From: Lysobacterales bacterium
GTDB lineage: Bacteria; Pseudomonadota; Gammaproteobacteria; Xanthomonadales; SZUA-5
Assembly (NCBI GenBank): GCA_022844165.1
Contig: JALHMH010000005.1
Coordinates: 32,001-96,000, forward strand
DNA length: 64,000 nt
Direction of reading: 5' to 3'
The first letter of the stretch is position 1, and every line of letters begins with the position of its first letter. Below are positions 3,659 through 56,655 of the stretch, in pieces. The position numbers and the translations under genes are program-made. The notes under the pieces are model-generated. The model had not been told where the DNA came from, searched no databases, and saw nothing but the letters and a program-made list of their open reading frames with translations.

Positions 3659-3760
3659 CTACTCAAAGCCACTGGCGAACAACCTGTCGGACAAGGTGCA
3701 ACCGCTGATGGTGACGCAGACGGCGGCACTCAGCGTAGCCCATCCAACGAAAGCAATCGG
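3659..3760 (-). pseudogene. Orphan 3' gene remnant encoding ...VTISGCTLSDRLFASGFE-stop
   Basis: The frame ends in the same GFE tag as three intact secreted proteins in the window, but upstream it runs into an intrinsic terminator at 3778-3811, with no signal peptide or credible start. Confidence 0.5.
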
Positions 3761-3777
3761 TGCGCCCTGCCGGGCGC

Positions 3778-3811
3778 AAAAAAAAGCCGCGACGGGGTTT
3801 CCGCCGCGGCT
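3778..3811 (-). terminator. Rho-independent terminator
   Basis: Minus-strand hairpin AGCCGCGGCGG-AAACC-CCGUCGCGGCU followed by a U run (A tract at 3778-3785 on plus). Confidence 0.85.
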
Positions 3812-3885
3812 GCGAAGGTCATCCGCTGGGGAGTGCATCAAAAAGCGGAGGCATCGAAAGGAGCCATCATTCTCCCCTCGACACA
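3778..3885 (-). ncRNA. Candidate small RNA with three stem-loops
   Basis: Stem 1 UCGAGGGGAG/CUCCUUUCGA (3872-3881 with 3854-3863); stem 2 UCCGCU/AGCGGA with an ACUCCCC loop; stem 3 is the terminator. No credible ORF feeds the terminator. Confidence 0.5.
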
Positions 3886-4028
3886 GCGCATAGGATGCCA
3901 TGATCGAGTTGCGAAATCGCGAAGGTTCTCTGACTTGTTTCGGGCGTGGCGAGGGACATGAACGTACAAACAACTTCACATATCATTCATAACATATTGA
4001 TATTTATACCTTCGTTGGATTTCTTCAC

Positions 4029-4058
4029 TGACATCAAACGGACGTAAAGATGATGTCA
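4029..4058. promoter_or_regulatory. Inverted repeat / possible Pho-box-like site upstream of phoD
   Basis: Perfect IR TGACATCA-N14-TGATGTCA; CTGACAT at 4028 resembles a Pho-box half-site; AT-rich tract at 3975-4010. Confidence 0.4.
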
Positions 4059-4096
4059 AAATCTCCGCCATCGTCAGGCCACGGCGTAAAATCTCA

Positions 4097-5635
4097 ATGG
4101 TTAACAAATTAAGTCGTCGTGTTGCATTGCAGCACATCGGATCCCTGGTCGCCAGCGTTGGGCTGATGACCCACCGACCGGTACGAGCTCAAACCAGAAC
4201 ACGATTTGTCCTCGATCCATTTTCTCTTGGCGTAGCCAGTGGCTATCCAACCACCACCGGCATCTCGCTCTGGACTCGTTTGGCACCCGCACCACTGCGT
4301 AGCGACGGCGGCATGGATCCCGAACGCGTTCCGTTCGTCTGCGAAATTGCGGACGACGAGAACTTCAGATCCATCGTGCGGGCGATCCAATCGGAAGCGT
4401 ACGCCGATGTCGCGCACAGCGTGCATCTCGACGTGGAGGGCCTGAAGCCGGGAAGAGCCTACTTCTATCGATTCCAGAGCGGCGACGCGACCAGCCGGGT
4501 CGGCCGCTTTGCAACGTTGCCCAACGCTGTTGACGATTACCGTATCGCATTCGCCAGTTGTCAGAACTTTGAACATGGCTACTTCTCTGCGTATCGACTG
4601 ATGCTGCGCGATGCACCGAATCTGGTTTTGTTCCTGGGCGATTACATCTACGAGAACCAGTGGGGCAACGACTCGATCCGCAAACATCTGGGACCAGAGA
4701 CGAACACCTTGGCGCAATACCGCACACGGCATGCGCAGTACAAACTCGACCCGGATTTGCAGGCGATGCATGCCAGCACACCGTTCGCTTTCGCATGGGA
4801 CGACCATGAGGTCGATAACGACTATGCGGGCGATGTCTCGGAGAATCTGGACCCGCAGTTCTTCAAGCGACGCATCGCCGCTTATCAAGCGTACTTCGAA
4901 CACATGCCATTGCCGCGGCGCATGTTCCCGACGCGCGACGAGATGCGCATCTATACGCACTTCGATATCGGCAAACTCCTCCGTGTTTACCTGCTCGACG
5001 ATCGGCAGTACCGCACATCCCAGCCCTGTCCGCGCGACAACCGTGTTGGCTCGCGCACACTGGATGAGTGCAGGCCCGACGGACCGCACACGCTGCTCGG
5101 CAGAGCACAGGAAGCATGGCTCGACGCGCGGTTCGCAGACAGCCCGGCCCGCTGGAATTTGATCGCGCAACAAACATTGTTGTCGCCTCTGGACGAATCG
5201 CCCGGCGCAGGTCGCGGGCTTTGGACCGATGGTTGGGATGGTTATCCAGCGGCGCGCAAGCGCCTTTTGGAAGCGATCCAAAACAACCGTTTGCGCAATC
5301 CGATCGTCGCCGGCGGCGACTTACACGCGCACATCGTGGCAAGCGTGCCCGGAGATCCTGAGCGCTTCGAATCCAAACCGATCGCGAGCGAGTTCGTCGC
5401 CACATCGCTTTCCGCTGACGGCAGGCCACAGTCGTATTACGACGAGCGTCGAATTGACAATCCTCATGTGCAATTGTTGCGCAGCGATGTACGGGGTTAT
5501 ACCCTGCTCGACATCGGCAGCGATCGGGTGTTGGCCAAACTACAGTCGGTATCGGACGTGCGTGAGCGCGAACCCACTTTCTCGACACTCGCGAGCTTTA
5601 CGGTAGAGGACGGGACACCGGGGCCACAGTCGTAG
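4097..5635 (+). CDS. phoD: Alkaline phosphatase D family protein, Tat-exported
   Basis: SRR Tat motif; PFSLGVASG, FASC, LGDYIYE, WDDHEVDND, LDDRQYR, DGWDGY, GDLH. Confidence 0.95.
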   Translation: MVNKLSRRVALQHIGSLVASVGLMTHRPVRAQTRTRFVLDPFSLGVASGYPTTTGISLWTRLAPAPLRSDGGMDPERVPFVCEIADDENFRSIVRAIQSEAYADVAHSVHLDVEGLKPGRAYFYRFQSGDATSRVGRFATLPNAVDDYRIAFASCQNFEHGYFSAYRLMLRDAPNLVLFLGDYIYENQWGNDSIRKHLGPETNTLAQYRTRHAQYKLDPDLQAMHASTPFAFAWDDHEVDNDYAGDVSENLDPQFFKRRIAAYQAYFEHMPLPRRMFPTRDEMRIYTHFDIGKLLRVYLLDDRQYRTSQPCPRDNRVGSRTLDECRPDGPHTLLGRAQEAWLDARFADSPARWNLIAQQTLLSPLDESPGAGRGLWTDGWDGYPAARKRLLEAIQNNRLRNPIVAGGDLHAHIVASVPGDPERFESKPIASEFVATSLSADGRPQSYYDERRIDNPHVQLLRSDVRGYTLLDIGSDRVLAKLQSVSDVREREPTFSTLASFTVEDGTPGPQS

Positions 5636-5759
5636 CTGCACCATGAGCGATGGGCATTGACATACGCCACCGTCTTGTCGGTGCATTCAGGCAAGGCGCG
5701 ACGACGCGCGTATAGTCCGCGCCGATTCGGATGCATACGATTTCATAGCGAGGTTATTC

Positions 5760-6857
5760 ATGGTTTTCGATGTCGTCGGGCAAATGGGCCACGAGCAGGT
5801 TGTGTTTTGCCATCACAAAGATGTGGGTTTGAAAGCCATCATCGCAGTCCACAACACGACGCTCGGTCCAGCGCTTGGCGGCTTACGCATGTGGCCGTAC
5901 AAGAGCGAGCAGGAAGCGCTCAACGATGTGCTGCGGTTGTCGCGCGGCATGACCTTCAAAGCCGCGGTTGCGGGGCTCAATCTGGGCGGCGGCAAAGGTG
6001 TCATCATCGGCGATCCGTCGCGCGACAAGTCGGAGGGCTTGTTTCGCGCTTTCGGTCGCTTCGTCAACTCGCTCGGTGGTCGATACATCACCGCAGAAGA
6101 TGTCGGGATCGACGTGAACGATATGGAATACGTCATGCAGGAGACGGATTTTGTCACCGGCGTGCATCAGGTCCACGGCGGTTCCGGCGATCCGTCGCCG
6201 TTCACGGCCGCCGGCACCTTGCAAGGAATCATGGCCAGCTTGAACGTGCGCTACGGCAACGAAAATGTCGGTCAATATGCGTATGCAGTGCAAGGGGTTG
6301 GGCACGTCGGCTTTGAACTGTGCAAGCTGTTACGCGGCGAAAAAGCCAAGGTATTCGTGACGGACATCAATCGCACAGCGGTGCAACGTTGCGTCGATGA
6401 ACTCGGATGCGAAGCTGTTGCCCTGGACGATATCTACGATGTCGACGCAGATGTGTACGCGCCCTGTGCTTTGGGCGGTACCGTGAATGAAAAAACCATG
6501 CCGCGCTTTAAGTTCAAGATCGTTTGCGGCGCTGCGAACAACCAGCTCGCCACCGACGAATGTGGCGACGAATTAGAACGCCGCGGCATCTTGTACGCGC
6601 CCGACTACGCAGTGAACGCCGGCGGCCTGATGAATGTCTCCATTGAGCTGGACGGGTACGATCGCGAGCGCGCCATGCGCATGTTGCGCACGATCTACTA
6701 CAACGTCGGCAAGATCTTCAAAATCGCCAAACGCGATGGCATTGCCACATGGAAAGCATCTGATCGCATGGCCGAAGAGCGAATCAACACCATCGGTCGC
6801 GTGCGCATGCCCTTTACTGGCACGAGCCGGCCGATGTTCAAAGGCCGGTCGCGCTAA
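5760..6857 (+). CDS. Leucine dehydrogenase (Glu/Leu/Phe/Val dehydrogenase family)
   Basis: GPALGGLR, LSRGMTFK, GGGKGVI, YITAEDVG, QGVGHVG, PCALGG, GAANNQL, APDYAVNAGG. Confidence 0.93.
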   Translation: MVFDVVGQMGHEQVVFCHHKDVGLKAIIAVHNTTLGPALGGLRMWPYKSEQEALNDVLRLSRGMTFKAAVAGLNLGGGKGVIIGDPSRDKSEGLFRAFGRFVNSLGGRYITAEDVGIDVNDMEYVMQETDFVTGVHQVHGGSGDPSPFTAAGTLQGIMASLNVRYGNENVGQYAYAVQGVGHVGFELCKLLRGEKAKVFVTDINRTAVQRCVDELGCEAVALDDIYDVDADVYAPCALGGTVNEKTMPRFKFKIVCGAANNQLATDECGDELERRGILYAPDYAVNAGGLMNVSIELDGYDRERAMRMLRTIYYNVGKIFKIAKRDGIATWKASDRMAEERINTIGRVRMPFTGTSRPMFKGRSR

Positions 6858-6957
6858 CTGGCAACTGGCGATATTGCTATTCGCCAGCTTTTCTGAGGCG
6901 GATCGACGCCGCGCGCGCTCATGGTTCAACGCAACGACCGCATCGCGTGAAGCGCGC

Positions 6958-7962: not shown

Positions 7963-8114
7963 CGTTCGCTCCTGAAGTGTTGTCCTGCGACTATATCGGT
8001 ATGAAGCGCACGCGCTATCTGCCGAAAGCCCTAAGCAGCCTGACCCCATACCTATGGGACGGCAAACCCCGATCTGCGTCCTAAGATAAGGCTACCTGAT
8101 CATCGGAGTTCGCT

Positions 8115-9296
8115 ATGCGCGCACGTGCACTGCTTCACGGTCTCCTGGCCCTGGCAGGATCGACCATCGCCAACAGCGTTGCAGCGGCTGCGCCTGCGCT
8201 CACTTTGCTCACGCCCGGCGGCGTCGCCGAAGGCGACACTGGCGCGCGAGCATTGCCATTCGGCATGCGCTGGACGCCGCTCCCCGGTGTCACAGGTGCG
8301 TACCAGGTGCAATGGCAAACCACCGATGGCAGCGCCACGGCGGGGAACGACTATGTCGCTGCAAGCGGCACAGCGACGCTTTCGCCTCAACAGACTTTCG
8401 TACCACTTTCAGTCATGGTTTTGGGTGATGAAGTCATCGAGCCGAATGAGGATATTCGCATCGTCTACCAGGTCGTTGGTGCGGCGATCAGCGGCAACGG
8501 TGCGTTGTGGATCAGCGACGATGACGGCGCATCGCCACCGCCTCCACCGCCAACTGTACTGATTCAGGCGCTTGATGCCAGCGTCACCGAACCGACCACA
8601 GGCGTACTCGATGTCGGCGTGATGTTGTTGCGACTGGGTCCAAACAACGGCTCGGTCGACGTCGACTTCAACGTCGATGCCTCCAGCAGCGCCGCACATG
8701 GCCAGGATTGGACGGGCCCAACGGCCGGCCGGATTCAGTTTGCGCCAGGGCAAACCATGCGCCGTATCGACTTGGCGGTATTGGCCGACGCGGAACAGGA
8801 AGGCATCGAGAGCATTCGGTTTTCTCTAGCGACGGCAGCCCCGGCGCTACTGCCACGAGAGCACGCCACCGTCACGATACGCGACCGCATCAGTGGCGTT
8901 GGTGCTGGCGTGGGAATCGTTGCGTGTCGCCGAGCCTTGTTGGAGAACGACGGTCCGGCGCGAGTGGTGGTCCGCCGCCACGGCGATAGTGGCGGTGCGC
9001 TCGAGCTCGACTATCGAACGGTCGACGGCAGCGCGCGCGCCGGAGCAGACTACACGGCAATCTCGGGAACCCTCAGCTGGGTGGCTGGCGATGCGACACC
9101 GCGCCTGATCGACATTACCCTGGCGACAGACAGTCAAATCGAACCACCCGAGTCGTTCACGGTGCAGATCTTGGATCCGCAGCCGGGCGTTAACCTCGCT
9201 CCAGCCGGCACCGGCATCATCATTCTTGATGCACACGATCAGATATTGATCGACGACTTCGCGCCCGGATGCGACGACCCTGCGAGCGGCGAATGA
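8115..9296 (+). CDS. Secreted Calx-beta repeat protein (three repeats)
   Basis: Signal peptide; repeats such as T-DGSATAGNDY...SGT, DGSARAGADY...SGTLSW, and D-x-x-x-E-x-x-E; poly-Pro linker. Confidence 0.88.
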   Translation: MRARALLHGLLALAGSTIANSVAAAAPALTLLTPGGVAEGDTGARALPFGMRWTPLPGVTGAYQVQWQTTDGSATAGNDYVAASGTATLSPQQTFVPLSVMVLGDEVIEPNEDIRIVYQVVGAAISGNGALWISDDDGASPPPPPPTVLIQALDASVTEPTTGVLDVGVMLLRLGPNNGSVDVDFNVDASSSAAHGQDWTGPTAGRIQFAPGQTMRRIDLAVLADAEQEGIESIRFSLATAAPALLPREHATVTIRDRISGVGAGVGIVACRRALLENDGPARVVVRRHGDSGGALELDYRTVDGSARAGADYTAISGTLSWVAGDATPRLIDITLATDSQIEPPESFTVQILDPQPGVNLAPAGTGIIILDAHDQILIDDFAPGCDDPASGE

Positions 9297-9315
9297 TCCG
9301 GCCCATGCGGGCGGA

Positions 9316-13583: not shown

Positions 13584-13598
13584 CATCGATCGACGAAG

Positions 13599-17213: not shown

Positions 17214-17903
17214 GTGGGCGGATTTCAAACCAAGTTCGAATCGGTGCGCGTTGCGGGCGTCGACAATCTCACCATTCGCTCGCTGTTCGATCGCATGCAG
17301 TTTGCCGACGACGGTGGCGAAGCCGAGCGCCTGGGCATCTCGCCAGCGCAATGGCCGCTGTTTGGCCTGCTTTGGCCCTCTGCATTGCATCTTGCCGCAC
17401 GCATCGGACAGCGCCTGGTGACGGAGGAGCGAATTCTGGAACTCGGCTGCGGACTGGCCGTACCGAGCCTCGTCGCACATCGCCGCGGCGCCGACATCAC
17501 CGCCAGCGACCACCACCCGCAAACACTGCCATTTCTCACCGAGAACCTGCGGCTCAACCGACTCCCGCCGATGAAATACGTACATCGCGCCTGGAATCCC
17601 GCCACCGTCGATGCCGATGAAAAGTATGGGCTGGTCATGGCCAGCGACGTACTCTACGAGTGCGACCCAAACGGGATCCTCGCCGAGTGCATCTCTAATC
17701 GCACGAGACCCACAGGCGAAGTGTGGATCGTCGACCCCGACCGCGGCCATCGCCCGCGCTTTACCCGACATATGCGCGAACTCGGCTTCAACGTCCAGGA
17801 AACCCGCCTCACGGCCCCGGCCGGCGCGAACGACGCGTACAAAGGTCGGATGCTGAGCTACACGCGAGTCGGCGAACACTCCGCTACCGCGCAGTTGGAC
17901 TAA
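17214..17903 (+). CDS. Class I SAM-dependent methyltransferase (protein-lysine MTase/METTL21-like)
   Basis: LWPSALHLA, ILELGCGL, ITASD, ASDVLYE. Confidence 0.85.
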   Translation: MGGFQTKFESVRVAGVDNLTIRSLFDRMQFADDGGEAERLGISPAQWPLFGLLWPSALHLAARIGQRLVTEERILELGCGLAVPSLVAHRRGADITASDHHPQTLPFLTENLRLNRLPPMKYVHRAWNPATVDADEKYGLVMASDVLYECDPNGILAECISNRTRPTGEVWIVDPDRGHRPRFTRHMRELGFNVQETRLTAPAGANDAYKGRMLSYTRVGEHSATAQLD

Positions 17904-17928: not shown

Positions 17929-18100
17929 CGCCATCCATGGCGATGGCCCGCAGGCGCCCCACTCTATGGGCTCAAAAAAGCGCGCGCGGCGGGTTTGCTG
18001 GGAGTCTGGTGGGAACAGACAAAGGCATCGCGCTATTGCACGGCGCACAGACGGGCGTGCGCATCGCGTTGCGGGTTTGCTGGAAAGTCCGTTTCCAACA
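17929..18100. repeat. Intergenic palindrome and direct repeats
   Basis: CGCCAT-CC-ATGGCG at 17929-17942; 13-bp direct repeat GCGGGTTTGCTGG at 17989 and 18071. Confidence 0.5.
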
Positions 18101-18128: not shown

Positions 18129-20219
18129 CTACTCGAACCCATCGATGAGCAGTGGTTCACTGGTACAGACGCGCGAACGCTCTGGATCGATGTAGACATG
18201 GAATGCGGCGCCCGCAGGAATCGCCGCACCGTCGCCGCGCTCGATGGCCCATTGTCCGCGACCCTGTGTCGCAGAGTTGTAGCTCAACAGCAGATTGCTC
18301 GGTACGTACACGTTGTTCGGATTGTAAACGGCGGTGACGAAAGGATGTGCGCACTCGATGTTGTCCAACAAGGGGTGGCTGATGTTGAGTATCTGCACCG
18401 CAACGCCCAGTGGTTCGGTCCGAAACGCGTGGGTTCCTGCGGCAAACAACGGGTTGGGAATGAGCACATTGAATGCAGCGCCTTCGGGCATCGCAGGTGG
18501 GAGACCAGCCACGGGCGCTTGATTGAAAACGCGCCAGCGATTGACCGATGTGTCGAACCACACGCCGATCGAGGAGTTGTTGTAAACGCCACTACCAGCC
18601 TGTGCCGGATCCCACCGCTGTGTCACGATCGGCAGCGCGTTTGGCTGATTGTTGAGTTGCGTGTTGTCGAGCGTCGTCAGGTTGAAACCGGTGTTCGCCG
18701 CGACGGCGGTGTGCACGTACGAGGTTTGCGTATCGATGTTCAGCAACACGAAGTAGCGCCGCCCGGTGGGCATCGGCGCACTCGTGTTTTGGTTGAAGAT
18801 GTTCCACAGGTTGATGCCACCGCTAAACCAAACACCGGTATGGTTGGCCGCGCCGGCAGGTAAAGGTGTCACGCCATCGATCTCGCGACCGAAGTGGCTC
18901 AGCGTGAGATTGTCGTTCGGTAGCAGTCCGACGGGTGGCGTTGCGATGCGTGTGACATTGCTATTGACATTGGCCGCCAGGCTGTAGTGTTCGAAACTCT
19001 GATCGAAGCTGCGCTCGTGCGCACCGATATCCACGGTCCCGCCGACGCGCCCTGCCCGGCCATCGATATCGGGCAAGGGAACAGGAACAATGATCACGAT
19101 CACCGGCTGATCGCTATTGTTCCCGGCGTTGACTTGTGGTGCCCCACTGTCTCGCGCCTGGAAATCGAATGGGCCGCGAAACCTGGCGATCGCGTTCACA
19201 TCGTTCGCGCCTGCCACAGTATTGCAGTAGGGCGTTGGGCTCTGCGAGTACAAATTGAAATTGTGCGTGGTTGAGATACCCGCTGCCGAAAGGAACTCGA
19301 TTCCACAGTTGGTTGCGCGATGCACAATGTTGTTCGCAATGCGCCCGGCAACCGTGTTGCTCGCATCGCGCTGCAGGGCTACACCGGACAAATTGGCCCC
19401 AGAAAGCGTGTTATTGAGCACCGATGCGATCAATGGCGCCGCCGTTGCGCGGATGACCACACCGGTGTCGACATTGAAGATCGCATTGCGCGTCACACGC
19501 ACCGTTGCAGGCAACGTGCCACCACCGGTTCCCGATACGAAAACCCCTGCCGACAGGGTTCCGCCGATCGGCAGTTGCTGCAGCCGACCAATTCGGTTGC
19601 CGTTGATGTTAACGGCCCCGTCGTGCGCCGAAATCAAAGCGGCAACGCCGGATCCTCGCACCAGCATTTGATTGTTGCGTACATTGATCGCCGGTCGTGC
19701 CGCGCCCACACCGCCATCGAAGAACAGTGCCGCACCAGAGGGATTGCCTTGCGTAAGATAAGAGCGTTCAACAGTCACGGTGTACGTCGAGGCCGCACCA
19801 GCTGCCTCGCTGATTTGCACGGCCGAAAACGAGGTACCGCCGGGCTCCAGGCGCATGTTGTCGAGCCCGATCGATTGAGTTTGGGCGACGACGCCAGATC
19901 CAACCCGGACGAAAACCTGGCCACGCAGGCGCAGATTCGACAGTGATATGTTGATGTTGGCCCCGGTCGCCGTCAGGTCAATGCTCCGTCCATCGGCGAA
20001 TAGGGCTGCGGCCCCCCGTTTGGTCAGTGTCAGGCTCTTGTTGGAGATGATCAGCGATTCGTTGATTACCCCTTCGGTCGTGATCTGCACGGTATCGCCG
20101 GTTGCCGCGGCATTAATACAGGCCTGCAGCGTGGTCGAACAGATACCGCTGCCCGGCCAGTTCAATTCGGCCGCTACTGCGGAATGACTTACCAGGGCGA
20201 GCAGCAATAGGCGTCTCAT
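18129..20219 (-). CDS. Secreted right-handed beta-helix protein with choice-of-anchor-Q-like segment, three C-terminal repeats and a GFE tag
   Basis: Signal peptide; TLQACINAA..GDTV; Asn-ladder V-x-N-N repeats; VNAG...DIDG...VDIGAHE; three ~80-aa repeats (W-x-[IV]-FN/ER...MP-x-G-x-x-F-x-V); ends LLIDGFE. Confidence 0.85.
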   Translation of the reverse strand: MRRLLLLALVSHSAVAAELNWPGSGICSTTLQACINAAATGDTVQITTEGVINESLIISNKSLTLTKRGAAALFADGRSIDLTATGANINISLSNLRLRGQVFVRVGSGVVAQTQSIGLDNMRLEPGGTSFSAVQISEAAGAASTYTVTVERSYLTQGNPSGAALFFDGGVGAARPAINVRNNQMLVRGSGVAALISAHDGAVNINGNRIGRLQQLPIGGTLSAGVFVSGTGGGTLPATVRVTRNAIFNVDTGVVIRATAAPLIASVLNNTLSGANLSGVALQRDASNTVAGRIANNIVHRATNCGIEFLSAAGISTTHNFNLYSQSPTPYCNTVAGANDVNAIARFRGPFDFQARDSGAPQVNAGNNSDQPVIVIIVPVPLPDIDGRAGRVGGTVDIGAHERSFDQSFEHYSLAANVNSNVTRIATPPVGLLPNDNLTLSHFGREIDGVTPLPAGAANHTGVWFSGGINLWNIFNQNTSAPMPTGRRYFVLLNIDTQTSYVHTAVAANTGFNLTTLDNTQLNNQPNALPIVTQRWDPAQAGSGVYNNSSIGVWFDTSVNRWRVFNQAPVAGLPPAMPEGAAFNVLIPNPLFAAGTHAFRTEPLGVAVQILNISHPLLDNIECAHPFVTAVYNPNNVYVPSNLLLSYNSATQGRGQWAIERGDGAAIPAGAAFHVYIDPERSRVCTSEPLLIDGFE

Positions 20220-26738: not shown

Positions 26739-26930
26739 CTGACGAAAACCAGTGGAACCGAGCTCTAAAGCATGAGGCGGTTAACCACACAAGGCCCCGA
26801 AGGATAACCTCAGAGATCCCATAGAGCAAGGGACAACGCCTAAGCTTGGGTCAGGTCGCGCTGGAGTCCTTGACGGAGCCGGAACTTGTCATTTGAGTCA
26901 AATTTTCGTCGGAGCTGCTTTGGCAGTTGA
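26738..26930. ncRNA. Unidentified structured RNA or non-autonomous inserted element
   Basis: Terminal pairing TCTGACGAAAA (26738-26748) with TTTTCGTCGGA (26903-26913), several internal helices, about 53% GC by hand count; a gene reading frame is disrupted at its edge. Confidence 0.4.
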
Positions 26931-27244
26931 AGCCCCCTTGAGGGCGGCTCGACGCGGATCAGCACCGGGAAGTCCGTTGGTACCGTGACGTCCAGACCCG
27001 GGAGCCGCGGCTGAATCGCTGCTGGGCTGATGATGAAGGCGTCAATCCCAAGGTTCTCCACGCTCAGGTTCTCTGGCGACGAGAACTCCAGCCGCAAAGT
27101 CGCGGTGTAGGTGGGCACGGCTACACTCGGCAGCGCGATCTCGGCCGTCGCGACGTTTCCAACAATGGTGACTGAAACATCGGCCGGCGCGTTTGCCGCG
27201 TAGAGCGCTAGCGCGGCGATGGCGATTCGAGTGGCAAGAGGCAT
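26840..27244 (-). pseudogene. Truncated secreted protein (DUF6689-like N-terminal half)
   Basis: Signal peptide, then DVSVTIVGN...ENLSVENLGI...RLPG...FPVLIRVEPP as recalled for this family; after EPPSRG the sequence loses protein-like character and stops within about 30 codons. Confidence 0.55.
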
Positions 27245-27420
27245 GATCGTTACGGAGCTCAGTAGTAAGGTGGTGGCGCACAACTGACGACATCAAGACT
27301 CGGCCCCTTCCCTGGGGCCGCGTTCTTTGCGGTAGATGCCTCCAACTTCGCCGACGCGAGCCCGACCAGGCGCTTGCGGGCCATTGATGCTCCTGGCGCA
27401 ACGGCCAAAAATGCCACCTG

Positions 27421-41380: not shown

Positions 41381-43636
41381 TTATTCGAAGCCATTGGCGA
41401 AGAGATTGTCCGGCAGCGCACACTGGTTTTGCCATAAACAGGCGACCCACTCCGGGCGATCGATGAACGGGTTGCGATTGCCCTGGAAACCGAATACCAC
41501 TTCGTTGCGCAGCCGCTCCTGATTCGTTGGCGGATCGGCAAAGTGCCAGGCGATCAGCGTATTGAGCACACCCATGTAGGCCGTCGTTGCCACCTGATTA
41601 TTCGCCGTGGTCATGATGAGACTGCGGTTGTTGGTGGCGATCAGATCCGGCTCTGGTTGCGAGTTTGCATGCATGCCCCCCTCGTATCGTACGTCCATGT
41701 ACAAAATGGCGCGCGCCAGATCGCCCTTGCGGTCGAGCCAGACTTCGTAGGTACCGGTGTTGCCATCGTTACCGAGCTGCCAGTTGGAATTGCCGGGATA
41801 AGCGCCGGTGCCACCGCCACCACCATTGTTCACGTCCGTGGGATTTTCGGTTCCAGCGCACGTTGTGGTGCCGCAATTGTCGAAGGGCTTGTTGCCACGA
41901 TTGCTGTTGTAGTCCGAAGCAGAGGTGTACAGCATGTGCGCATCGACGTACGGCGAGTATGGATTGTTATTCGCATCAACGCCGGAAAGATCGTTGAATC
42001 CCAACGAGTTGGGCCAGGTGTGTTCGCGGTTGTAGGTTGCAGGTCCAGTTGCTCCGGAGCGATCCGTGATCTTCGTGTAGGTGCGATTGCGGTACACATC
42101 AAGCACCCGCGCGGGGTTGGCCGGGTCTTGATCGGCCGCCTCCAGGATATCCCACACATCGCAAAGCGCCGTGCTGGGCGCCGACAGGTTGCAGGTGTTG
42201 GTACTGATCGAATAACGATATGCCACGTGGTCGTCGATCAGCGTGTGCAGCGTCGTGCGCAGGGTCGTCGCATTGGTCGCATCGACGCTGGCGTAGTAAT
42301 CCAATGCCGACGCTGCCGTCGTGAAGTCGAACACATCGTCGGTGAGCATCGGATCGGGCGTGCCGTCGAGATCAACGATGAGCGTGTTCTCCAACGTCAC
42401 CACGCAGTTTTCCAGAAACTCGAGGTCGCCGTTGATATCCAGCGTATAGCTGACGGGTCCACCGCTGACCGCTGCCGTTCGCGCACCGGAGCTTGCACAT
42501 AGAATCTGATACCAGCTGCCCGTGACCGACACCGGTTCGCTGAAATTGATCGATACGTTCGTGCCGATCGGCACGTTGCCGGCATTGTCGAGTGGCACCG
42601 TGCTGACGACCGTGGGCGCAAGGTCCGCGACCACGGTGAAGTTGATCGGCACGTTCGCCGGCAGGTTGTCGGGTGATCCGTCGAGATCGGCCACCTGGGA
42701 TGCGATCACGGTCGCCGTGCACTGCTCGCCAAAAGCCAGCGGATTCGTTGGCTGCGCGGTGATGCTGGCGCCTGTGTTGACCGCCGTGGTCACCGCCACG
42801 GCGCCGCTGACGGTGCAGTTCAATGTCAGCCAGGTGGGACTGACCTGCACGGGCTCGCTAAACTGAACTCCGATGGATGTCGCGAGCGGCACATTGCTCG
42901 CATTGTTTGCCGGAAGCGATGAAACAAACTGCGGCGGAACATCTGGACCCGCACCACAACTTGCCTGGATATCATCGATTCCGATCAGCGCATCGACTCC
43001 CGCGGCATTTGTTGTGATCCAGCGGACCTGCACCTGCGGTGCGTTGAGATAAGTCGCGGGCATGGTGATCGAATAGGTCTGCGACGCCGTGCCATTGGCA
43101 TTGGCCACAAACCCGCCAGGCACATTGGCAAAATTGCCTGCCTCACCGACACGAGCCTGCAGTGCCACTGGCTGCACTGCCGTCGACAGCGTGTCAATGT
43201 CGCGCAGTCGGTAATCGACAATCAGTTGCGAACATCCCAACGTGTTCAGGCGAAGCAACAAAAATGGCGCATCGGCACTGCCGCTGCCCTGAAATGCGAT
43301 CGTCGGATTTCCGGCGATGTCCCCGCCCCCGACCACTTCGGCAAAACCGCCGCCAGAGTGGTTGCTGGCGTCCAGCACATCCGGCGTGACATTCAACGTA
43401 CCATTACCGAACGCCAGAACGGTTTGTGGGTCGACACCCGTGGCCATGGTCAGATCGCCGCCCAGATGCCCTTCCAAACTGGGCACACCCGACCAGTTGT
43501 CCATCGTTGCGATCAGTCCCGAGTTCGACCAATCTTGCGCGACAGGTCCACCCGACAACGCATGGTAGTTAGTATCGGCATGCGCGACAGCGGCGCCCAG
43601 CAGGCTCAGCGCCAGCAGCGTTCGAGTTAAGAACAT
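41381..43636 (-). CDS. Secreted endonuclease I-family nuclease with N-terminal beta domain, two Ig-like (Big_5) repeats and a GFE tag
   Basis: Start ATG 43636 with signal peptide; P-x-N/D-N-A-x-N-V...FSEPV repeats; NREHTWP, NSNRGNKPF, KGDLARAILYM, QGNRNPFID; ends NLFANGFE. Confidence 0.9.
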   Translation of the reverse strand: MFLTRTLLALSLLGAAVAHADTNYHALSGGPVAQDWSNSGLIATMDNWSGVPSLEGHLGGDLTMATGVDPQTVLAFGNGTLNVTPDVLDASNHSGGGFAEVVGGGDIAGNPTIAFQGSGSADAPFLLLRLNTLGCSQLIVDYRLRDIDTLSTAVQPVALQARVGEAGNFANVPGGFVANANGTASQTYSITMPATYLNAPQVQVRWITTNAAGVDALIGIDDIQASCGAGPDVPPQFVSSLPANNASNVPLATSIGVQFSEPVQVSPTWLTLNCTVSGAVAVTTAVNTGASITAQPTNPLAFGEQCTATVIASQVADLDGSPDNLPANVPINFTVVADLAPTVVSTVPLDNAGNVPIGTNVSINFSEPVSVTGSWYQILCASSGARTAAVSGGPVSYTLDINGDLEFLENCVVTLENTLIVDLDGTPDPMLTDDVFDFTTAASALDYYASVDATNATTLRTTLHTLIDDHVAYRYSISTNTCNLSAPSTALCDVWDILEAADQDPANPARVLDVYRNRTYTKITDRSGATGPATYNREHTWPNSLGFNDLSGVDANNNPYSPYVDAHMLYTSASDYNSNRGNKPFDNCGTTTCAGTENPTDVNNGGGGGTGAYPGNSNWQLGNDGNTGTYEVWLDRKGDLARAILYMDVRYEGGMHANSQPEPDLIATNNRSLIMTTANNQVATTAYMGVLNTLIAWHFADPPTNQERLRNEVVFGFQGNRNPFIDRPEWVACLWQNQCALPDNLFANGFE

Positions 43637-44594: not shown

Positions 44595-44601
44595 ACTCCG
44601 A

Positions 44602-49205: not shown

Positions 49206-49705
49206 TCCGCGGTCGCGCCTTTGTATACGGCGATCAGATCGATACCGATGTGCTCGCCCCGGGCGCCTACATGAAGCGGCCGATCGCAGAGTTGGCGCAG
49301 CACTGCCTGGCGGCAATCGACCCCGACTTCGCAGTGTCAGTCGTGCGCGGAGACGTGATCGTCGCCGGATACGGGTTCGGTATTGGTTCCTCGCGCGAGC
49401 AGGCAGCGCAGGCTCTGGTGCAGCTCGGCGTTGGCTGCGTGCTCGCCAAATCCTTCGCGCGAATCTTCTATCGCAACGCGCTAAATCTGGGGCTACCAGT
49501 GCTGGTGCTCGATAGCGAGCACAGCATTCAACGCGGCGAGCGCCTCGAAGTTCAACTTGAAACGGGGCGCGTGAAGTTGATCGACAAGAGTATCGAACTT
49601 CACGCGCAGCCCATTCCGGCGTTTTTGCAAACTCTGTTGGCCGACGGGGGCCTCATCCCGCACCTGAAAAAGCGCTTCGCGTCGGCGCAGAACTACCAGC
49701 GATAG
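49202..49705 (+). CDS. Hydro-lyase small subunit (LeuD/HacB-like)
   Basis: DQIDTD, FGIGSSREQA, SFARIFYRNALNLG, GGL. Confidence 0.9.
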   Translation: MIRGRAFVYGDQIDTDVLAPGAYMKRPIAELAQHCLAAIDPDFAVSVVRGDVIVAGYGFGIGSSREQAAQALVQLGVGCVLAKSFARIFYRNALNLGLPVLVLDSEHSIQRGERLEVQLETGRVKLIDKSIELHAQPIPAFLQTLLADGGLIPHLKKRFASAQNYQR

Positions 49706-51183: not shown

Positions 51184-51268
51184 AATGATTTCCTGGTCGG
51201 TGACTCCATGTTAGAACGAATAGAGCGGCAAATTGGGGTTAGATTTCGCACCACTCGGCCAATGCAGG

Positions 51269-53815
51269 TTAGAGCCGTGGATCGATAGGCTCGCTTTCGA
51301 GCGCCAACACACCGAACACGCACTCATGCACGCGATACAGCGGCTCGCGATCGACGAATCGGTGTAGCGCCTCCAATCCCAGCGCAAATTCGCGCGCCGC
51401 GAGCGAACGTTTGCCGCTGACCGCACGCACGCGCAGCGCCTCCAGTTGCGCAGGTTCGGTGTATGTGGGCCCGTAGATGATGCGCAAGTATTCGCGGCCG
51501 CGGCATTTGATGGCTGGCTGCAGCAGCAGCCCCTTGCGATCGCGAACCACGGACTCGACCGGCTTTACGACCATGCCTTCGGCACTCTTTTCTGTGATCG
51601 AATGCCACCAGTCGCTGGCTTCGCGCTCGCTTGATGGATCGCCAAGTTCGACCCAGCGTCGGTCGGTCGCCACCAGACCGATGGGATTCACCGCACACAA
51701 TGCATCGAGTACGTCCAATTGCCAACGATGGCTTTTCGCCAAACCGACCTGTCCCTCGATCGCCAGCACATGGAACGGCGCGATCTTCAAGTCGCCCGGA
51801 TTGTTCACCGTCCAGCAGTAACGATGATATGCGTCAATGTAAAGCCCGACCAATTGGCCGCGAGTCGCGTACTTCGCTGCGAGGTCGGCGATGTCGACAC
51901 CGCGCTCCAGCGCTTGCGTCAACAAGGCATTAGCGGCACCCAGTGCCGCAGCGCCGGCCGCGCCAGTCGGTGCGTATTGCAGCCGCAACAGCTCTTCGGC
52001 CTTCGCCGACCACGGCAACAACTCGGCATCCAGCACGATCCATTCGCTCTGCAACCTGGCCCACAATCCAGCGGCCGTCATCGCTTCGTCAAGCCGATCG
52101 AGCAACGCGTTTTCGACCGTTCGGTCCTTGAAAAAGCGTCGACCGGTGCGCGTGACGATGACGCCGCGACCATCGTTTTCGATTTGAAACCGTGCCGACG
52201 CGGTGTGCGTATCGCGACACAGCACGATCACGGCGCGCGAGCCCATGTGCTTTTCCTGGCACACCAACTCACGCACGCCTTGACCACGAAAGTAGCCGAA
52301 GGCTTCTTCTGGCCGTTCCAGCAGATCGCCTTCTGGCGCCGTGGCCGGTGGCGACATCGTCGGCGGCAAATACACCAGCCAGCGCGGATCGACAGCGAAT
52401 CGACTCATCACCTCGAGCGCTGCGCGCGCATTTTCTTCCTGCACCGTAATGCGCCGCCCGAAACGGGTTTCGACCGATCGTTTGCCGAGTACATCGTCGA
52501 TATCGAGCGTCAGCCCAGCACGCAGTTGCGTGAGCGCTGCGAGTGGTTTGATCGGTGCGTAGTGCACCTTTTCAGCAGGCACCGCAATGATCTCGCGCTC
52601 GGGATAGCGTAGGGCCGTCAACTCCCCGCCGAACACACAACCGGTGTCGATACAGATCGTGCGGTTGATCCACTCCGCATGCAGAACGGGCGTGTGCCCG
52701 TACACCACCATCGCCTTGCCACGATAGTCGTTGGCCCATTGGTAGCGCACCGGCAAGCCGTACTCGTCGGTCTCGCCGGTGGTTTCGCCATACAGTGCAA
52801 ACTCGCGGACAGCGCCGGACGTGCGCCCTTGCAGACTCTCTTTGAGGCCTGCGTGGGCGACAACAAGCTTGCCTTCATCGAGCACAAAATGGCTGACGAG
52901 GCCGTCGATGAACTCGCGCGCCTGGATCTTGAACTCAGCAGGTTCGGATTCGATTTGCTCAAGCGTCTCGGCGATGCCATGCGTCAGGCTGACCTGGCGA
53001 CCGGCCAGTTTGCGCATCAGCTTGATATCGTGATTGCCAGGCACGCACAGCGCGCTGCCTTGTTCGACCATGGCCATGACCAGATACAAAACGCCCGGCG
53101 AATCCGGGCCCCGATCCACCAGATCGCCTAGAAACAGCGCGCGACGCCCCGGTGGCGCTTGCACCTGTGGCGCCTCGCGGGTGCCACCGATCGCATAACC
53201 GAGTTTGTCGAGCAAGGTCTTGAGCTCGCTCAAGCAGCCGTGTACATCGCCAATCAGATCGAAGGGCCCCTGGTCGTGACGCTTATCGTTCCAAAGCCGT
53301 GTACGCTGTACAACCGCACGCGCCACATCGTCGACCCGTTTGAGCACCGTGACGTGTCGAAAACCCTCGCGCTCCAGACCCCGCATCGAACGGTGCAAAG
53401 CTTGCACCTGGCCGCGAATCACATGCGCGCCAAACTGGCGGTCAGGCCGGGTTTGATTGCGCTCATGGTAGAGCGCCTCCGGCAAATCGAAGACGATCGC
53501 CACTGGCAATACATGATGCTGTTTGGCCAAGGTCACCAGATGCTTGCGATCATCGCTGCGCACGTTGGTGGCATCGACCACGGTGAGCAATCCTGCCGCC
53601 AGGCGTTTGGCGGCAATGAAATACAGCACGTCAAAAGCATCTTTGGTCGCAGCCTGATCGTTTTCGTCGTCGCTCACCAACCCCCGGCAGACGTCTGACG
53701 ACAAGACTTCAGTGGTTTTGAAATGGCTGCGCGCGAAGGTGCTCTTGCCGGCGCCGGATGGGCCGATCAGCACCACCAGACATAGCGCTGGAACGTCAAT
53801 GGTCAGTGCGGTCAT
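51269..53815 (-). CDS. pnkp: Bacterial polynucleotide kinase-phosphatase-ligase (Pnkp)
   Basis: Kinase GPSGAGKST; metallophosphoesterase GDVHG, GDLVDRG, GNHD; ligase QEKHMGSR, EGMVVKP, IKCRG. Confidence 0.95.
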   Translation of the reverse strand: MTALTIDVPALCLVVLIGPSGAGKSTFARSHFKTTEVLSSDVCRGLVSDDENDQAATKDAFDVLYFIAAKRLAAGLLTVVDATNVRSDDRKHLVTLAKQHHVLPVAIVFDLPEALYHERNQTRPDRQFGAHVIRGQVQALHRSMRGLEREGFRHVTVLKRVDDVARAVVQRTRLWNDKRHDQGPFDLIGDVHGCLSELKTLLDKLGYAIGGTREAPQVQAPPGRRALFLGDLVDRGPDSPGVLYLVMAMVEQGSALCVPGNHDIKLMRKLAGRQVSLTHGIAETLEQIESEPAEFKIQAREFIDGLVSHFVLDEGKLVVAHAGLKESLQGRTSGAVREFALYGETTGETDEYGLPVRYQWANDYRGKAMVVYGHTPVLHAEWINRTICIDTGCVFGGELTALRYPEREIIAVPAEKVHYAPIKPLAALTQLRAGLTLDIDDVLGKRSVETRFGRRITVQEENARAALEVMSRFAVDPRWLVYLPPTMSPPATAPEGDLLERPEEAFGYFRGQGVRELVCQEKHMGSRAVIVLCRDTHTASARFQIENDGRGVIVTRTGRRFFKDRTVENALLDRLDEAMTAAGLWARLQSEWIVLDAELLPWSAKAEELLRLQYAPTGAAGAAALGAANALLTQALERGVDIADLAAKYATRGQLVGLYIDAYHRYCWTVNNPGDLKIAPFHVLAIEGQVGLAKSHRWQLDVLDALCAVNPIGLVATDRRWVELGDPSSEREASDWWHSITEKSAEGMVVKPVESVVRDRKGLLLQPAIKCRGREYLRIIYGPTYTEPAQLEALRVRAVSGKRSLAAREFALGLEALHRFVDREPLYRVHECVFGVLALESEPIDPRL

Positions 53816-55200
53816 GGCAGCTCCCGCTTCTTGAAGACCGCCATCTGGGTAGGCGTCCCTAACGTGGCATCGACGTTGCCGATACCGCGCAGTTGCACGT
53901 CGTAGTCGTAGCGATCGGCCACTTCAGCAGACCACGCAGCGAATTCGGCACGTGTCCACTCGAAGCGATGATCGCCATGGCGGAAGGTGCCGGGCCTTAG
54001 CGCTTCGAACAGTACGTTGTAGTCGGCATTGGGCGTGGTCACAACGACCAATGGCGATGCCGCATGGCCGAAGAGGTTGGCCTGCACAGCCTCCAGGCGT
54101 TCTGCATCAATGTGTTCGACGACCTCCACAGCAACTACCGCATCGAAGCCTCTCAGCGCATCATCGCGATAGGTCAGGCTCGACTGTTTGAGTTCGATTC
54201 GCGCACGTTGCAGCGCCGGCAAACGGTCGAGTTTCAGCCGATCGGCGGCGCGTTCCAGCGCAACGCACGACACATCGACGCCGAGCAGTTTGTCGAAACG
54301 GCGCTCTTCCATCAGCAGCGCTAACAGCCGCCCTTCGCCGCAGCCCACATCGACGACCGAATGCGCGCCGCGTTCGACCAGTACTTCGAGAACGGCGCGC
54401 AAACGCTGCTCGTTCAACGACAACGGACGTTCGATGTTCGCCTCGCGTTCGTCGCGCTGCTGATCGGCAGTCTCGGCATCGTCCTCATCCTCGAGTATCA
54501 ACTGCGACAAGGCCTCGCGCACCAGCGATCGACGTTGCTTCAGATAGCGCGACGTAATCCACTCGCGCTCCGGGTGCGCAGCCAGCCACGGCCCGGCGTG
54601 ATCGACCAGTTTTTGCACCTCATCGCTACCGACGTAGTAATGCTTGTCGCCATCCAATGCCGGCAGCAACACGTATAGATGCGACAACACTCCGGACAGT
54701 TTCAGCGTGCCGGCCAGGCGCAAAGCGATGTACGGGGAAGCACCCCATTCGGGGAACTTCGAATCGAGCGGCAGAGCCTCAATCGTTACCGTGTCGTAAC
54801 CGAGCGGCGCCAGCACCGCCTCGATCCTGGCTCGACCAGCACGACAGCGCAGCACCGGCACGTTGACCTCCAATGGAATCGCTGTGTGCGCCAGTTCGGG
54901 ACGCTCTTTGGATTCGCCGCGACGCAAAATCCGCGCAATCGCTACGGCCATGAACGACGCGGCGACAAAGGGCCGATCGTTCACATAGTGTCCGATGGTC
55001 TCGCCGCGACCACGCACCAACGCCACCGGGTCAATATCCAGCAGCAGCGCCACAGTGCAGCGCTCGGCATTTGCTTCAGGATAAAACACGTGCGCCTGTC
55101 CAACGGTTAACTCGAACGATTGCGCGCGCGCAGGATTTTTGCCGATCAGATAACCCAGATCGGTTGCCGGTTGGTGAGTCGTGGTGAGCGTTATGAGCAC
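53812..55200 (-). CDS. hen1: RNA 3'-terminal ribose 2'-O-methyltransferase Hen1
   Basis: GTG start 55200: LITLTTTHQPATDLGYL; KHYYVG; DVGCGEG, EVVEH, RHGDHRFEWTR; stop overlaps the pnkp start. Confidence 0.95.
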   Translation of the reverse strand: MLITLTTTHQPATDLGYLIGKNPARAQSFELTVGQAHVFYPEANAERCTVALLLDIDPVALVRGRGETIGHYVNDRPFVAASFMAVAIARILRRGESKERPELAHTAIPLEVNVPVLRCRAGRARIEAVLAPLGYDTVTIEALPLDSKFPEWGASPYIALRLAGTLKLSGVLSHLYVLLPALDGDKHYYVGSDEVQKLVDHAGPWLAAHPEREWITSRYLKQRRSLVREALSQLILEDEDDAETADQQRDEREANIERPLSLNEQRLRAVLEVLVERGAHSVVDVGCGEGRLLALLMEERRFDKLLGVDVSCVALERAADRLKLDRLPALQRARIELKQSSLTYRDDALRGFDAVVAVEVVEHIDAERLEAVQANLFGHAASPLVVVTTPNADYNVLFEALRPGTFRHGDHRFEWTRAEFAAWSAEVADRYDYDVQLRGIGNVDATLGTPTQMAVFKKRELP

Positions 55201-55305
55201 GAGCTTCGACCTGAATGGACCTGATTGAAAGCAATAGTCCGCGCACCATGGCGCGACCGTTCTGAGCAAGCTACCATCTCGCGGTCGCCAAGCCGAGCAA
55301 CGCAG

Positions 55306-56655
55306 ATGCGCTTTCCAATACTGTGGGCATTGTTATTCGCCACTGCGGCATCCGCTCAAGATCGTCACCCGACGGTGATCGCGGATATCTCTGGCATCGG
55401 CGCCGAACGCATCGCCAGGCTGAAATCCGAATCGATCTGGTCGGTGGAGATGGGCATGGAGATGCTGCTCGCCGTCGACGCCGGGCAACATGACCAGTGG
55501 CTAAAACGAGACGGCATCCGCAACGGTCTGGGACACCTCAATCGCGATGAGGTCTGGATTCGCGACCATGTTTGCACGCACCAGGCCGTGATGCCAGCAC
55601 TTGGCACAGTGGGCGGTTACGAGGTTCTACGGCAGCCACCCGCCATGATCCGTTATGCGAAAGCGCATGGCATTCCGGGAACCGACGCACCCGCGGACGG
55701 CGTTCTCGCGCGCGAAGCCCGCAATGAACCGGGCGGCGTGGTGCGCGGAAAATCGCTGCCGAGTGTGCAGTCTTTGGTTGATCGCGTCGATGCCGAACGC
55801 TGGTTTCAAACGATGAGCCTGCTCGCGGCTTTCAATCGCAACAGCTTCAGTCCCACGCTTTCGACGGCACGCGACTGGGTGCTTTCGGCTTTCGAAGGCG
55901 CCGCCTTACGCACCGAAGTGTTCGAGTACCAGATGCCGAGCATCACCAGTTGCAACCCGGCGACAGCACCGATCAATCTTAGCAATCCTGTTGGCCGCAA
56001 GATTGGTGAGCGCCTGCCCGATGAGTGGATCGTCATCGGTGCGCATTACGATTCGCGCAACAGTGCGCGCTGCGATGGCACCGCCAACCCCCAGCCCGGC
56101 GCCAACGATAATGCGTCGGGCTGTGCGGGCGTCATCGAACTGGCGCGCATCTTCGCCGATGTGCCGACGCAGCGCTCGATTTTATTCATGTGCTACTCGG
56201 GTGAGGAACAGGGCCTCTGGGGCAGCCGCCGTTACGTCGAAGCGCTGCAGGCGAATGGCGATATCGCCAAGGTCAAACACATGATCAATCTCGACATGTT
56301 GGGCTTCGACTCCGGTGGTACGCTCGATGCACGGGTCGAGACCAATACCACGCACGCCGCTTTGTTGGTCCAGTATCGGACAGCCGCAACCACATACGCA
56401 CCGGAACTCAATTTGATCACCAGCAGCAATACCAGCGCCGGATCCGATCATTGGTACTTTTTACAAGCGGGCGTTCCCGCGGTATTTACGTGGGAAAACG
56501 GCGCCAGCATTTATCCGCACTACCATCGGGACACCGATCTGCCGGCCAACATGACCCGGGCCAGAGAACTGGCGGGTGGAATTTTGAAAATGGACACCGC
56601 AATGCTCGCTGAAATGGCCATCCTGGGGGCGACGTTTGCCGATGGATTCGAGTGA
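55306..56655 (+). CDS. Secreted M28-family metallopeptidase with a GFE tag
   Basis: Signal peptide; IGAHYDS, GANDNASG, GEEQGLWGS, INLDM, SDH, HYH; ends TFADGFE. Confidence 0.92.
   Translation: MRFPILWALLFATAASAQDRHPTVIADISGIGAERIARLKSESIWSVEMGMEMLLAVDAGQHDQWLKRDGIRNGLGHLNRDEVWIRDHVCTHQAVMPALGTVGGYEVLRQPPAMIRYAKAHGIPGTDAPADGVLAREARNEPGGVVRGKSLPSVQSLVDRVDAERWFQTMSLLAAFNRNSFSPTLSTARDWVLSAFEGAALRTEVFEYQMPSITSCNPATAPINLSNPVGRKIGERLPDEWIVIGAHYDSRNSARCDGTANPQPGANDNASGCAGVIELARIFADVPTQRSILFMCYSGEEQGLWGSRRYVEALQANGDIAKVKHMINLDMLGFDSGGTLDARVETNTTHAALLVQYRTAATTYAPELNLITSSNTSAGSDHWYFLQAGVPAVFTWENGASIYPHYHRDTDLPANMTRARELAGGILKMDTAMLAEMAILGATFADGFE

Follow-up and report, generated by a model that had tools for sequence, protein, structure and literature searches.

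A short C-terminal GFE peptide on unrelated exported proteins of Lysobacterales, a candidate sorting or docking signal

The stretch of DNA analyzed here, termed the window, consists of 64,000 nucleotides from the genome of a Lysobacterales bacterium (GenBank assembly GCA_022844165.1, contig JALHMH010000005.1, positions 32,001 to 96,000 of the forward strand). Its G+C content is ~59–61%, and its genes include pheT, ihfA and nusA/infB-type genes, plus many that encode envelope proteins. Four reading frames of the window close with the same short peptide, [D/E]-x-hydrophobic-F/I-x-[D/N/S]-G-F-E-stop, here termed the GFE tag. Three of the frames encode intact proteins with signal peptides and the fourth is a gene relic. 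The tag was singled out in an original prediction made from the sequence alone, and both the positions of the four ends and the differences between their G-F-E-stop codons have been verified in the sequence. The GFE ending is a genuine, selectively maintained, modular and strictly C-terminal peptide, and it is found on many unrelated exported proteins in a subset of Lysobacterales.

The first intact carrier is a beta-helix/DUF7452 protein encoded on the minus strand (18129–20219), which has an N-terminal beta-helix-like part and, by Pfam, two DUF7452 stretches. Its tag, EPLLIDGFE, is encoded at 18132–18158 and is followed by a TAG stop at 18129–18131. The second, also on the minus strand (41381–43636), is an endonuclease I protein that has Big_5 Ig-like domains and an Endonuclease_1 domain (Pfam). 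The true start of this protein is at 43636, not 43861; its tag, DNLFANGFE (41384–41410), precedes a TAA stop, and an inverted repeat or hairpin, read by eye from the sequence, lies directly 3′ of the stop. The third carrier, on the plus strand (55306–56655), is a LapA-like M28 aminopeptidase (Pfam Peptidase_M28) with the tag GATFADGFE (56626–56652) and a TGA stop. Among NCBIfam models it is best matched by the Legionella-type aminopeptidase LapA, far under the cut-off. All three proteins have signal peptide-like N-termini, MRRLLLLALVSHSAVAAE, MFLTRTLLALSLLGAAVAHAD (start at 43636) and MRFPILWALLFATAASAQ (start at 55306), and these N-termini, together with the Pfam architectures, agree with the proposal that the intact carriers are signal-peptide proteins with unrelated domains. 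The last Pfam domain in the window carriers stops 22–32 residues ahead of the stop codon, and the tail is covered by no model. The spacer just downstream of the beta-helix gene displays a repeat of its own: the 13-base word CCAGCAAACCCGC is found twice on the minus strand at 17989–18083, with a one-mismatch copy at 17795.

Since the G-F-E-stop codons differ among the four window copies, a DNA repeat was rejected as the origin of the shared ending. Read-through or frameshifting past the tag stops was also rejected, as all three downstream frames are closed or non-coding at the four stops, and nothing readable was found downstream of any of the stops in any frame. Among window frames of at least 200 amino acids, counted from stop to stop, three of 78 finish in GFE. 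Internally, the tripeptide is present 11 times in the 61,096 residues of window frames of at least 100 amino acids. A fifth GFE-ending frame (984–1466, plus strand) lies opposite pheT without the remaining motif and is taken as chance. The relaxed motif [ILVMF][FILVM].[DNST][GD]F[ED] has three matches in the six-frame translation of the window, all abutting a stop, and none at internal sites; the end of the M28 peptidase has T at position −7 and escapes this pattern. Other window proteins with signal peptides, i.e. PhoD, an NHL/DUF5122-like propeller, a DUF4139 protein, a DUF6689 fragment and a Calx-beta protein, do not carry the tag. Thus, the tag marks only a subset of exported proteins.

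The tail is conserved in relatives. Orthologs of all three intact proteins hold it at 52–87% identity while the short variable linker that joins it to the preceding protein drifts. A profile of the four 40-residue window tails was compared with longer proteins, and the best 120 of 127 matches at E up to 10, among 1,654 candidates, are all relatives of the three window families. Seventy of these end in GFE and 44 have one to 12 further residues (+1 to +5 in 21, 7, 4, 2 and 1 proteins, +8 in three and +12 in six). Four have the variant ends DDFE, DSFEP, NSFEP and DGFQDL, and two are without the tag (P0105 and P0119). In the endonuclease family the tag comes after four types of last domain, namely Endonuclease_1, fn3, tandem-95/VCBS/cadherin-like repeats and DUF11, and therefore it tracks the C-terminus and not a domain.

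For the M28 family, a full-length search gave 321 matches, and the best 120 (52–87% identity) have a tag-type tail without exception. There are 62 that end in GFE, 35 with one more residue (D/E/N/P/Q/G), four with two to five more, and 19 with close variants, e.g. DSFE, DGLED and DQFE, the latter found in the Ahniella affigens protein. An alignment of 21 orthologs at 62–87% identity shows F444, G447, F448 and E449 to be invariant; the five to seven residues that precede the tail vary in sequence and length. The additional residue in 35 of the 120 orthologs shows that the Glu need not have a free carboxylate. The consensus reads [D/E]-x-[L/I/V]-F-x-[D/N]-G-F-E, with 0–5 (rarely 7–13) residues after it, and extreme ends among the relatives are acidic (E, ED, EE, EP).

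To follow the tag in other genomes, contigs of reference genomes were scanned with TTCGCNRAYGGNTTCGARTRR, the coding pattern for F-A-[D/N]-G-F-E plus a stop or Trp codon. At least 121 stretches were found. By the names in their record titles, read by eye, 84 of the 121 listed belong to the Lysobacterales lineage, 15 are assigned only to Proteobacteria or Gammaproteobacteria, and 22 to other phyla. Names of the Lysobacterales lineage are Lysobacterales, Lysobacteraceae, Rhodanobacteraceae, Dokdonella, Aquimonas, Tahibacter, Ahniellaceae, Rudaea, Chiayiivirga, Pseudolysobacter and Wenzhouxiangellaceae, with one metagenome-assembled genome (MAG) labelled ‘Xanthomonas sp.’. Dokdonella/Ahniella-type genomes are thus typical carriers, in agreement with the original statement that their proteomes have similar ends. 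Both MAGs and isolates carry the tag, and Tahibacter isolates and Ahniella affigens are among the matches of the genome scan and the M28 search. Isolates of Xanthomonas, Stenotrophomonas and Lysobacter are not among the matches listed, which is no evidence that they are without the tag. About a dozen matches in unrelated phyla are chance occurrences in short open reading frames (ORFs). Real-looking tag ends on long ORFs are present in two bins of unrelated phyla, a Pirellulales MAG (L016) and a Saccharimonadia MAG (L098); these could represent bin contamination or gene transfer.

The 125 scan matches among those listed comprise 117 true stops and eight TGG codons, and the 117 reduce to 112 unique ends, 99 of which close an ORF of at least 100 amino acids or one that runs off the locus. 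At position −7, which the scan pattern did not specify, L/I/V is found in 98 of the 112 ends versus 19.8% in the bodies of those ORFs (binomial p ~1e-53), and at position −9 D is found in 47 of 112 versus 6.2% (p ~4e-27). The tag thus extends beyond G-F-E, with positions −7 (L/I/V) and −9 (D) conserved as well. The stop codons that follow the tag are TAG, TGA and TAA in 43, 36 and 20 cases, versus 24, 87 and 19 in neighbouring untagged ORFs of at least 200 amino acids (chi-square p 1.1e-5). This skew might come from the TCG/TGG codons of the long form described below, or from avoidance of leaky TGA.

Pfam was run on 57 of the 112 tagged ORFs, i.e. those of at least 150 amino acids in loci with 2-kb flanks. 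Domain matches were found in 37 and none in 20, and by our own grouping the 37 represent 22 unrelated architectures: DUF7948 with SBBP; PD40; CotH with LTD; FG-GAP; DUF5122; GSDH; PKD with CarboxypepD_reg; M28; Beta_helix; S8 (with or without MAM); DUF4394; sortilin/BNR; Kelch; ASH/HYDIN-type Ig; DUF5650; RCC1; PA; reprolysin (M12B); Flg_new_2; cadherin/Big_9 with Endonuclease_1; Dioxygenase_C; and DUF7452. Thus, the tag is common to at least 22 unrelated protein architectures. A gene for an extracytoplasmic function sigma factor (Sigma70_ECF) adjoins a tagged gene at two loci (L046, 950–1537, and L074, 2162–2773), once together with a Ser/Thr kinase gene; two of the 101 flanking ORFs scanned are too few to establish a link.

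The association with export was assessed with a home-made signal-peptide heuristic that looks for a basic n-region, an uncharged hydrophobic 9-mer and a small-x-small site, with all candidate starts scanned. It is positive in 30 of the 31 tagged ORFs whose N-terminus is in view, and the single miss is a chance match in an Eremiobacterota MAG. Among non-overlapping closed ORFs of at least 250 amino acids in the loci, it is positive in all 19 that are tagged and in 16 of 99 without the tag (Fisher p ~1e-12), and this bears out the expected enrichment for signal peptides, by a crude measure; in the window the figures are three of three and 13 of 30 (p 0.10). Because the background of the heuristic is high, these figures show enrichment and not exact rates. 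A hydrophobic N-terminal stretch or signal peptide-like N-terminus is also present in 96 of the 105 full-length relatives found with the tail profile. Judged by their N-termini, tag carriers are predicted to be Sec- or Tat-exported proteins.

Terminal position was assessed at unselected sites, in the flanks of loci L001–L080 away from the matched sites (320,287 ORF codons). The relaxed motif has 11 further matches there, and these lie 0, 0, 1, 1, 2, 4, 4, 4, 5, 11 and 24 residues from a stop. No deep-internal copy of the motif was found in these flanks or in the window. The orthologs, the genome scan and the flank positions all agree with the proposal of a modular C-terminal tag that is maintained at the peptide level on unrelated exported proteins.

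The window M28 protein was modelled with AlphaFold2 and 21 aligned orthologs, with a mean predicted local distance difference test score (pLDDT) of 81.6. The last helix comprises residues 419–438, and residues 442–449 have pLDDT values under 50 and no secondary structure. In the model, the tag appears as a flexible, unstructured tail outside the preceding fold. The last strand of a shared larger domain had been put forward as an explanation that would undo the original prediction; it is ruled out by the unstructured M28 tail and the variety of unrelated domains that precede the tag.

A profile of 102 tails (four from the window and 98 from the loci) was compared with 1.84 billion representative proteins. 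Six proteins were found at E up to 0.001, all large and with three to seven matched stretches apiece; the motif is not long enough to pick up tagged proteins that have a single copy, and thus the search provides no database-wide count or internal-versus-terminal ratio. By regular expression, the motif starts each repeat copy in five of the six (P0121 and P0123–P0126), with a period of 192–455 amino acids and the opener [V/I/L]-F-[A/I/S]-D-G-F-E-[S/T/G/H]-[G/N]-....-[W/Y]-[T/S/N]. Three repeat units that were inspected show a stretch of ~180–200 amino acids finishing in a ...Y-x-D-[D/S]-V... strand. Pfam gives weak evidence for the fold, with sub-threshold alignments that set in at positions 1–5 of the Polysacc_lyase and CBM_4_9 profiles and a match to Laminin_G_3 elsewhere in P0124 and P0126. 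An AlphaFold2 model of P0123, made without an alignment, has a mean pLDDT of 37. PDB sequence searches gave no significant match for P0123 (E 0.7) or for the tail profile (E >5), and the ESM Atlas gave no usable match with the last 25 residues as query. With a weak P0123 model and non-significant PDB matches, the jelly-roll assignment rests on sequence patterns and sub-threshold Pfam matches. N-G-F-E or D-G-F-E opens CBM4_9/LamG-type domains. The tag thus appears to have a likeness, in sequence, to the first strand of ConA-like/CBM4_9-type jelly-roll domains, and the openings of the repeats agree with the resemblance originally suggested.

A long C-terminal form, GFE[S/T/W]G..T..W[S/T]...., extends 7–13 residues past GFE. 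It is found in P0073, P0077, P0087, P0100, P0110 and P0115 and at loci L023 and L063 (Thermoanaerobaculia MAGs) and L058, and is thus partly outside Lysobacterales. At L023 and L058 the long tail is preceded by ORFs of 553 and 470 amino acids, respectively. Three of the TGG cases from the scan have a hydrophobic residue at −7 and frames that end 7–13 residues on; two of them come from Thermoanaerobaculia MAGs and the third from a Rhodanobacteraceae MAG. To judge from its pattern, the long form would correspond to the first two jelly-roll strands, i.e. the first hairpin.

The fourth tagged frame of the window (3659–3979, minus strand) is situated 72 nt upstream of pheT and has no recognisable domain by Pfam. 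Its end, DRLFASGFE (3662–3688), is followed by a TAG stop. A terminator-like hairpin is found inside the frame, at 3811–3785 on the minus strand, and the translation has a faint likeness to endonuclease I relatives in their C-terminal region (P0104, 32% over 65 amino acids; E 0.005, with only 126 proteins in the database). The tag end noted earlier at this site is present, and we read the frame as a relic that has kept its tag-coding end. The pheT gene (1233–3587, minus strand) has no pheS upstream, and instead there are the relic, a strong hairpin and a divergent PhoD gene (4097–5635, plus strand), which suggests a local rearrangement. Well-formed tag ends (e.g. ...DKIFANGFE and ...DRIFANGFE) also close frames of 35–62 amino acids at L029, L032, L070 and L075, in the manner of the window relic, and these may be gene relics or frameshifted MAG assemblies.

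The window Calx-beta protein (8115–9296, plus strand) has the tail ILIDDFAPGCDDPASGE (9243–9293), which was previously taken as a degenerate tag. The tail is present as described, but three close orthologs (P0226–P0228) keep an ending of the family's own, HDQIL[I/V]DDFAPGCDD, which takes the form SDFTPECLD in a 52% relative. The Calx-beta ending has a Cys and the tag has none there. It is a separate, family-specific ending with a likeness to the tag, and it is not counted here. The DUF6689 fragment of the window (26840–27283, minus strand) is a signal-peptide ORF of 147 amino acids that directly adjoins the next gene. Its match to the DUF6689 model is confined to positions 13–114 of 275, and the gene is probably truncated.

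The tag appears to be uncatalogued. Pfam has no model on any tail of the window proteins or of the 57 tagged ORFs. In NCBIfam release 20, no sorting-domain family matches the complete window proteins (E up to 0.01). The result is the same at E up to 10 for the 40-residue tails and for six full-length relatives, whose tails are short or long. Names given to relatives are generic (‘M28 family peptidase’, ‘endonuclease’, ‘Ig-like domain-containing protein’). Literature searches by motif strings, Dokdonella sorting and type II secretion/Lysobacter gave no description of the motif among the papers listed, and the short strings matched noise.

To our knowledge, the catalogued C-terminal sorting signals of bacterial exported proteins consist of a motif plus a membrane helix, or of a folded domain. 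The LPXTG, PEP-CTERM and GlyGly-CTERM-type signals are tripartite, with a motif, a transmembrane helix and a basic tail, and are cut by a membrane enzyme. As in the GlyGly-CTERM/rhombosortase, PEP-CTERM/exosortase, LPXTG/sortase and IPTL-CTERM systems, the GFE tag is a short motif at the extreme C-terminus, preceded by a flexible linker, on many unrelated signal-peptide proteins and in a limited lineage. Unlike the tripartite signals, it has no hydrophobic transmembrane segment, has 0–5 residues after G-F-E in nearly all relatives, has no basic C-terminal cluster but an acidic end, and has no match to a curated NCBIfam/TIGRFAM sorting domain. The absence of a transmembrane helix, basic tail or sizeable C-terminal domain is as originally described. 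A membrane enzyme of the sortase type could not use a tag without a transmembrane segment, and no sortase, exosortase or rhombosortase gene was found by Pfam in the window or the scanned flanks. The GlyGly-CTERM cargo of Vibrio cholerae is reported to comprise proteases, a DNase and adhesin-like proteins (PMC12889589). The tag cargo of proteases, a nuclease and adhesin-like repeat proteins with short linkers parallels it, both in its spectrum and in its arrangement of linker plus motif.

Other known systems share single properties with the tag. The C-terminal domain of type IX secretion system substrates is likewise a C-terminal address, free of transmembrane segments, on secreted and surface proteins of many families. 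That domain is a folded beta-sandwich of ~70–100 amino acids and belongs to Bacteroidota; the tag, unlike it, has 7–9 amino acids (to ~20 in the long form), is found in Gammaproteobacteria, is unstructured in the M28 model and has no Pfam domain over the tail. Substrates of type I secretion with a C-terminal signal are without an N-terminal signal peptide, whereas tag carriers have signal peptide-like N-termini. The beta-signal of outer-membrane proteins is a C-terminal aromatic residue that closes a beta-barrel, whereas the tag ends in E, D or another polar residue and the domains before it are of soluble enzyme, propeller, Ig and beta-helix families. The N-terminal strand of ConA-like/CBM_4_9/LamG jelly-rolls has the pattern hydrophobic-F-x-[D/N]-G-F-E-[S/T]-G-....-W, as found at the start of the 180–450-amino-acid units of the repeat proteins. 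A full jelly-roll has ~130–200 amino acids and a last strand of the Y-x-D-D-V type, whereas the tag stops after the first strand, or after the first hairpin in the long form, and the other ~150 residues are absent. In donor-strand complementation of chaperone-usher pili and in split-domain tag/catcher pairs, a short terminal beta-strand completes the beta-sandwich of another protein; the analogy with the tag is conceptual only.

A conserved, exposed and strictly terminal peptide on a subset of exported proteins, with no conserved neighbour among the 101 flanking ORFs, is most simply a signal read in trans. We infer that the GFE ending is such a post-export sorting or docking signal, a reading that has about an even chance of being correct. 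After export, the tag would act as a sorting or retention signal, and its exposed tail would be captured in trans by beta-strand addition onto a partner. Candidate partners are a surface scaffold, a component of a secretion machine, or a strand-deficient jelly-roll acceptor. Binding to the partner would decide the fate of the enzyme or adhesin, i.e. whether it is kept on the cell, carried into vesicles or released. Capture by strand addition is favoured because the alternating hydrophobic/acidic pattern and the [D/N]-G pair, which favours turns, suggest a strand or a tight hairpin.

Several points weigh against a sorting or docking role. No receptor, processing enzyme or co-occurring gene was found in the window, the loci or the 101 flanking ORFs, and among these ORFs Pfam displays no recurrent neighbour family of tagged genes; such scatter would be expected if the signal is genome-wide and the machinery that reads it is encoded at other sites. 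Endonuclease I, soluble glucose/sorbosone dehydrogenase and PD40 propellers are periplasmic in other bacteria, and the tag need not signify surface display or secretion. The link to export depends in part on a home-made heuristic whose background is high, with 13 of 30 untagged window ORFs positive, and at least two of its calls (L064 and L066) appear to be internal false positives. The tolerance of one to five residues after the Glu speaks against simple recognition of a terminal carboxylate. The AlphaFold evidence comes from one family, M28, and a shallow alignment of 21 sequences. The genome matches listed are a lower bound, and the scan pattern admitted only TTC for both Phe codons and only Ala at position −5; per-genome counts and the full taxonomic range are thus not derivable from the scan.

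Perhaps the tag has no address information at all and is the evolutionary stub of a lost ConA-like/CBM-type jelly-roll, kept because a short acidic-aromatic tail aids the mature protein in cis in its folding, solubility or resistance to proteases. The repeat starts of P0121 and P0123–P0126 have the identical motif, and intermediate lengths are found, from +1 to +8 and as the +12/+13 hairpin form GFE[S/T]G..T..W[S/T]..... The excess of TAG after the tag would also fit nonsense mutation of TCG (Ser) or TGG (Trp), which appear to be the codons after GFE in long forms. Decay, however, hardly explains why at least 22 unrelated architectures should all be cut short at one and the same residue, or why F, G, F and E are invariant in orthologs down to 52% identity while the linker drifts. 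There is also no trace of a downstream domain after the window stops, the tail is not packed on the M28 fold in the model, and no intact jelly-roll start of this type was found in the window or the ~0.4 Mb of loci. A stub is therefore considered unlikely. A recognition tail for an envelope protease or chaperone, such as a PDZ tail-specific protease or a DegP-type factor, that controls maturation, activation or turnover and not location is a distinctly improbable alternative. Its attraction is that the peptide is exposed, flexible, conserved and at the extreme C-terminus, that several cargo proteases might need controlled activation, and that PDZ domains bind C-terminal peptides by strand addition. 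PDZ ligands, however, are usually hydrophobic-ended with a free carboxylate, whereas here the last residue is acidic and one to five more may follow; most of the cargo does not consist of proteases, and no protease is connected with the tag by the present data. That chance, base composition, a DNA repeat or gene-calling produced the shared ending as an artefact can virtually be dismissed: the chance frame opposite pheT and the dozen or so short-ORF scan matches show that such ends do arise, but they do not account for codons and stop codons that differ among the four window copies, for conservation at the unselected flanking positions (p ~1e-53 and 4e-27), for the tail kept in orthologs, or for 84 of 121 listed scan loci with Lysobacterales-lineage names.

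A more specific form of the docking proposal would have the tag as the donor half of a naturally split jelly-roll, completing a ConA-like acceptor that is deficient in its first strand and is situated on the cell surface or in a secretion machine. This suggestion, made by analogy, is quite unlikely to be correct. If it holds, the two-strand hairpin may be the older form of a one-strand ‘key’. By regular expression, no N-termini of first-strand-deficient acceptors were found in the window or the loci, and no intact jelly-roll starts (FE-SG...W) in the window or ~0.4 Mb of loci. Were the split jelly-roll true, dozens of exoenzymes and adhesins would be docked by inter-molecular strand complementation, which would add a third principle of protein sorting in bacteria to transpeptidation of the sortase type and folded C-terminal domains.

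The GFE tag would provide a simple annotation marker for a class of exported proteins in poorly studied bacteria of soil, water and wastewater. If a receptor exists, the tag would also be a very small natural handle for surface display. If the tag is indeed a post-export sorting or docking signal, a peptide of 7–9 residues without a transmembrane segment would suggest that the Gram-negative envelope has a recognition step not yet described.

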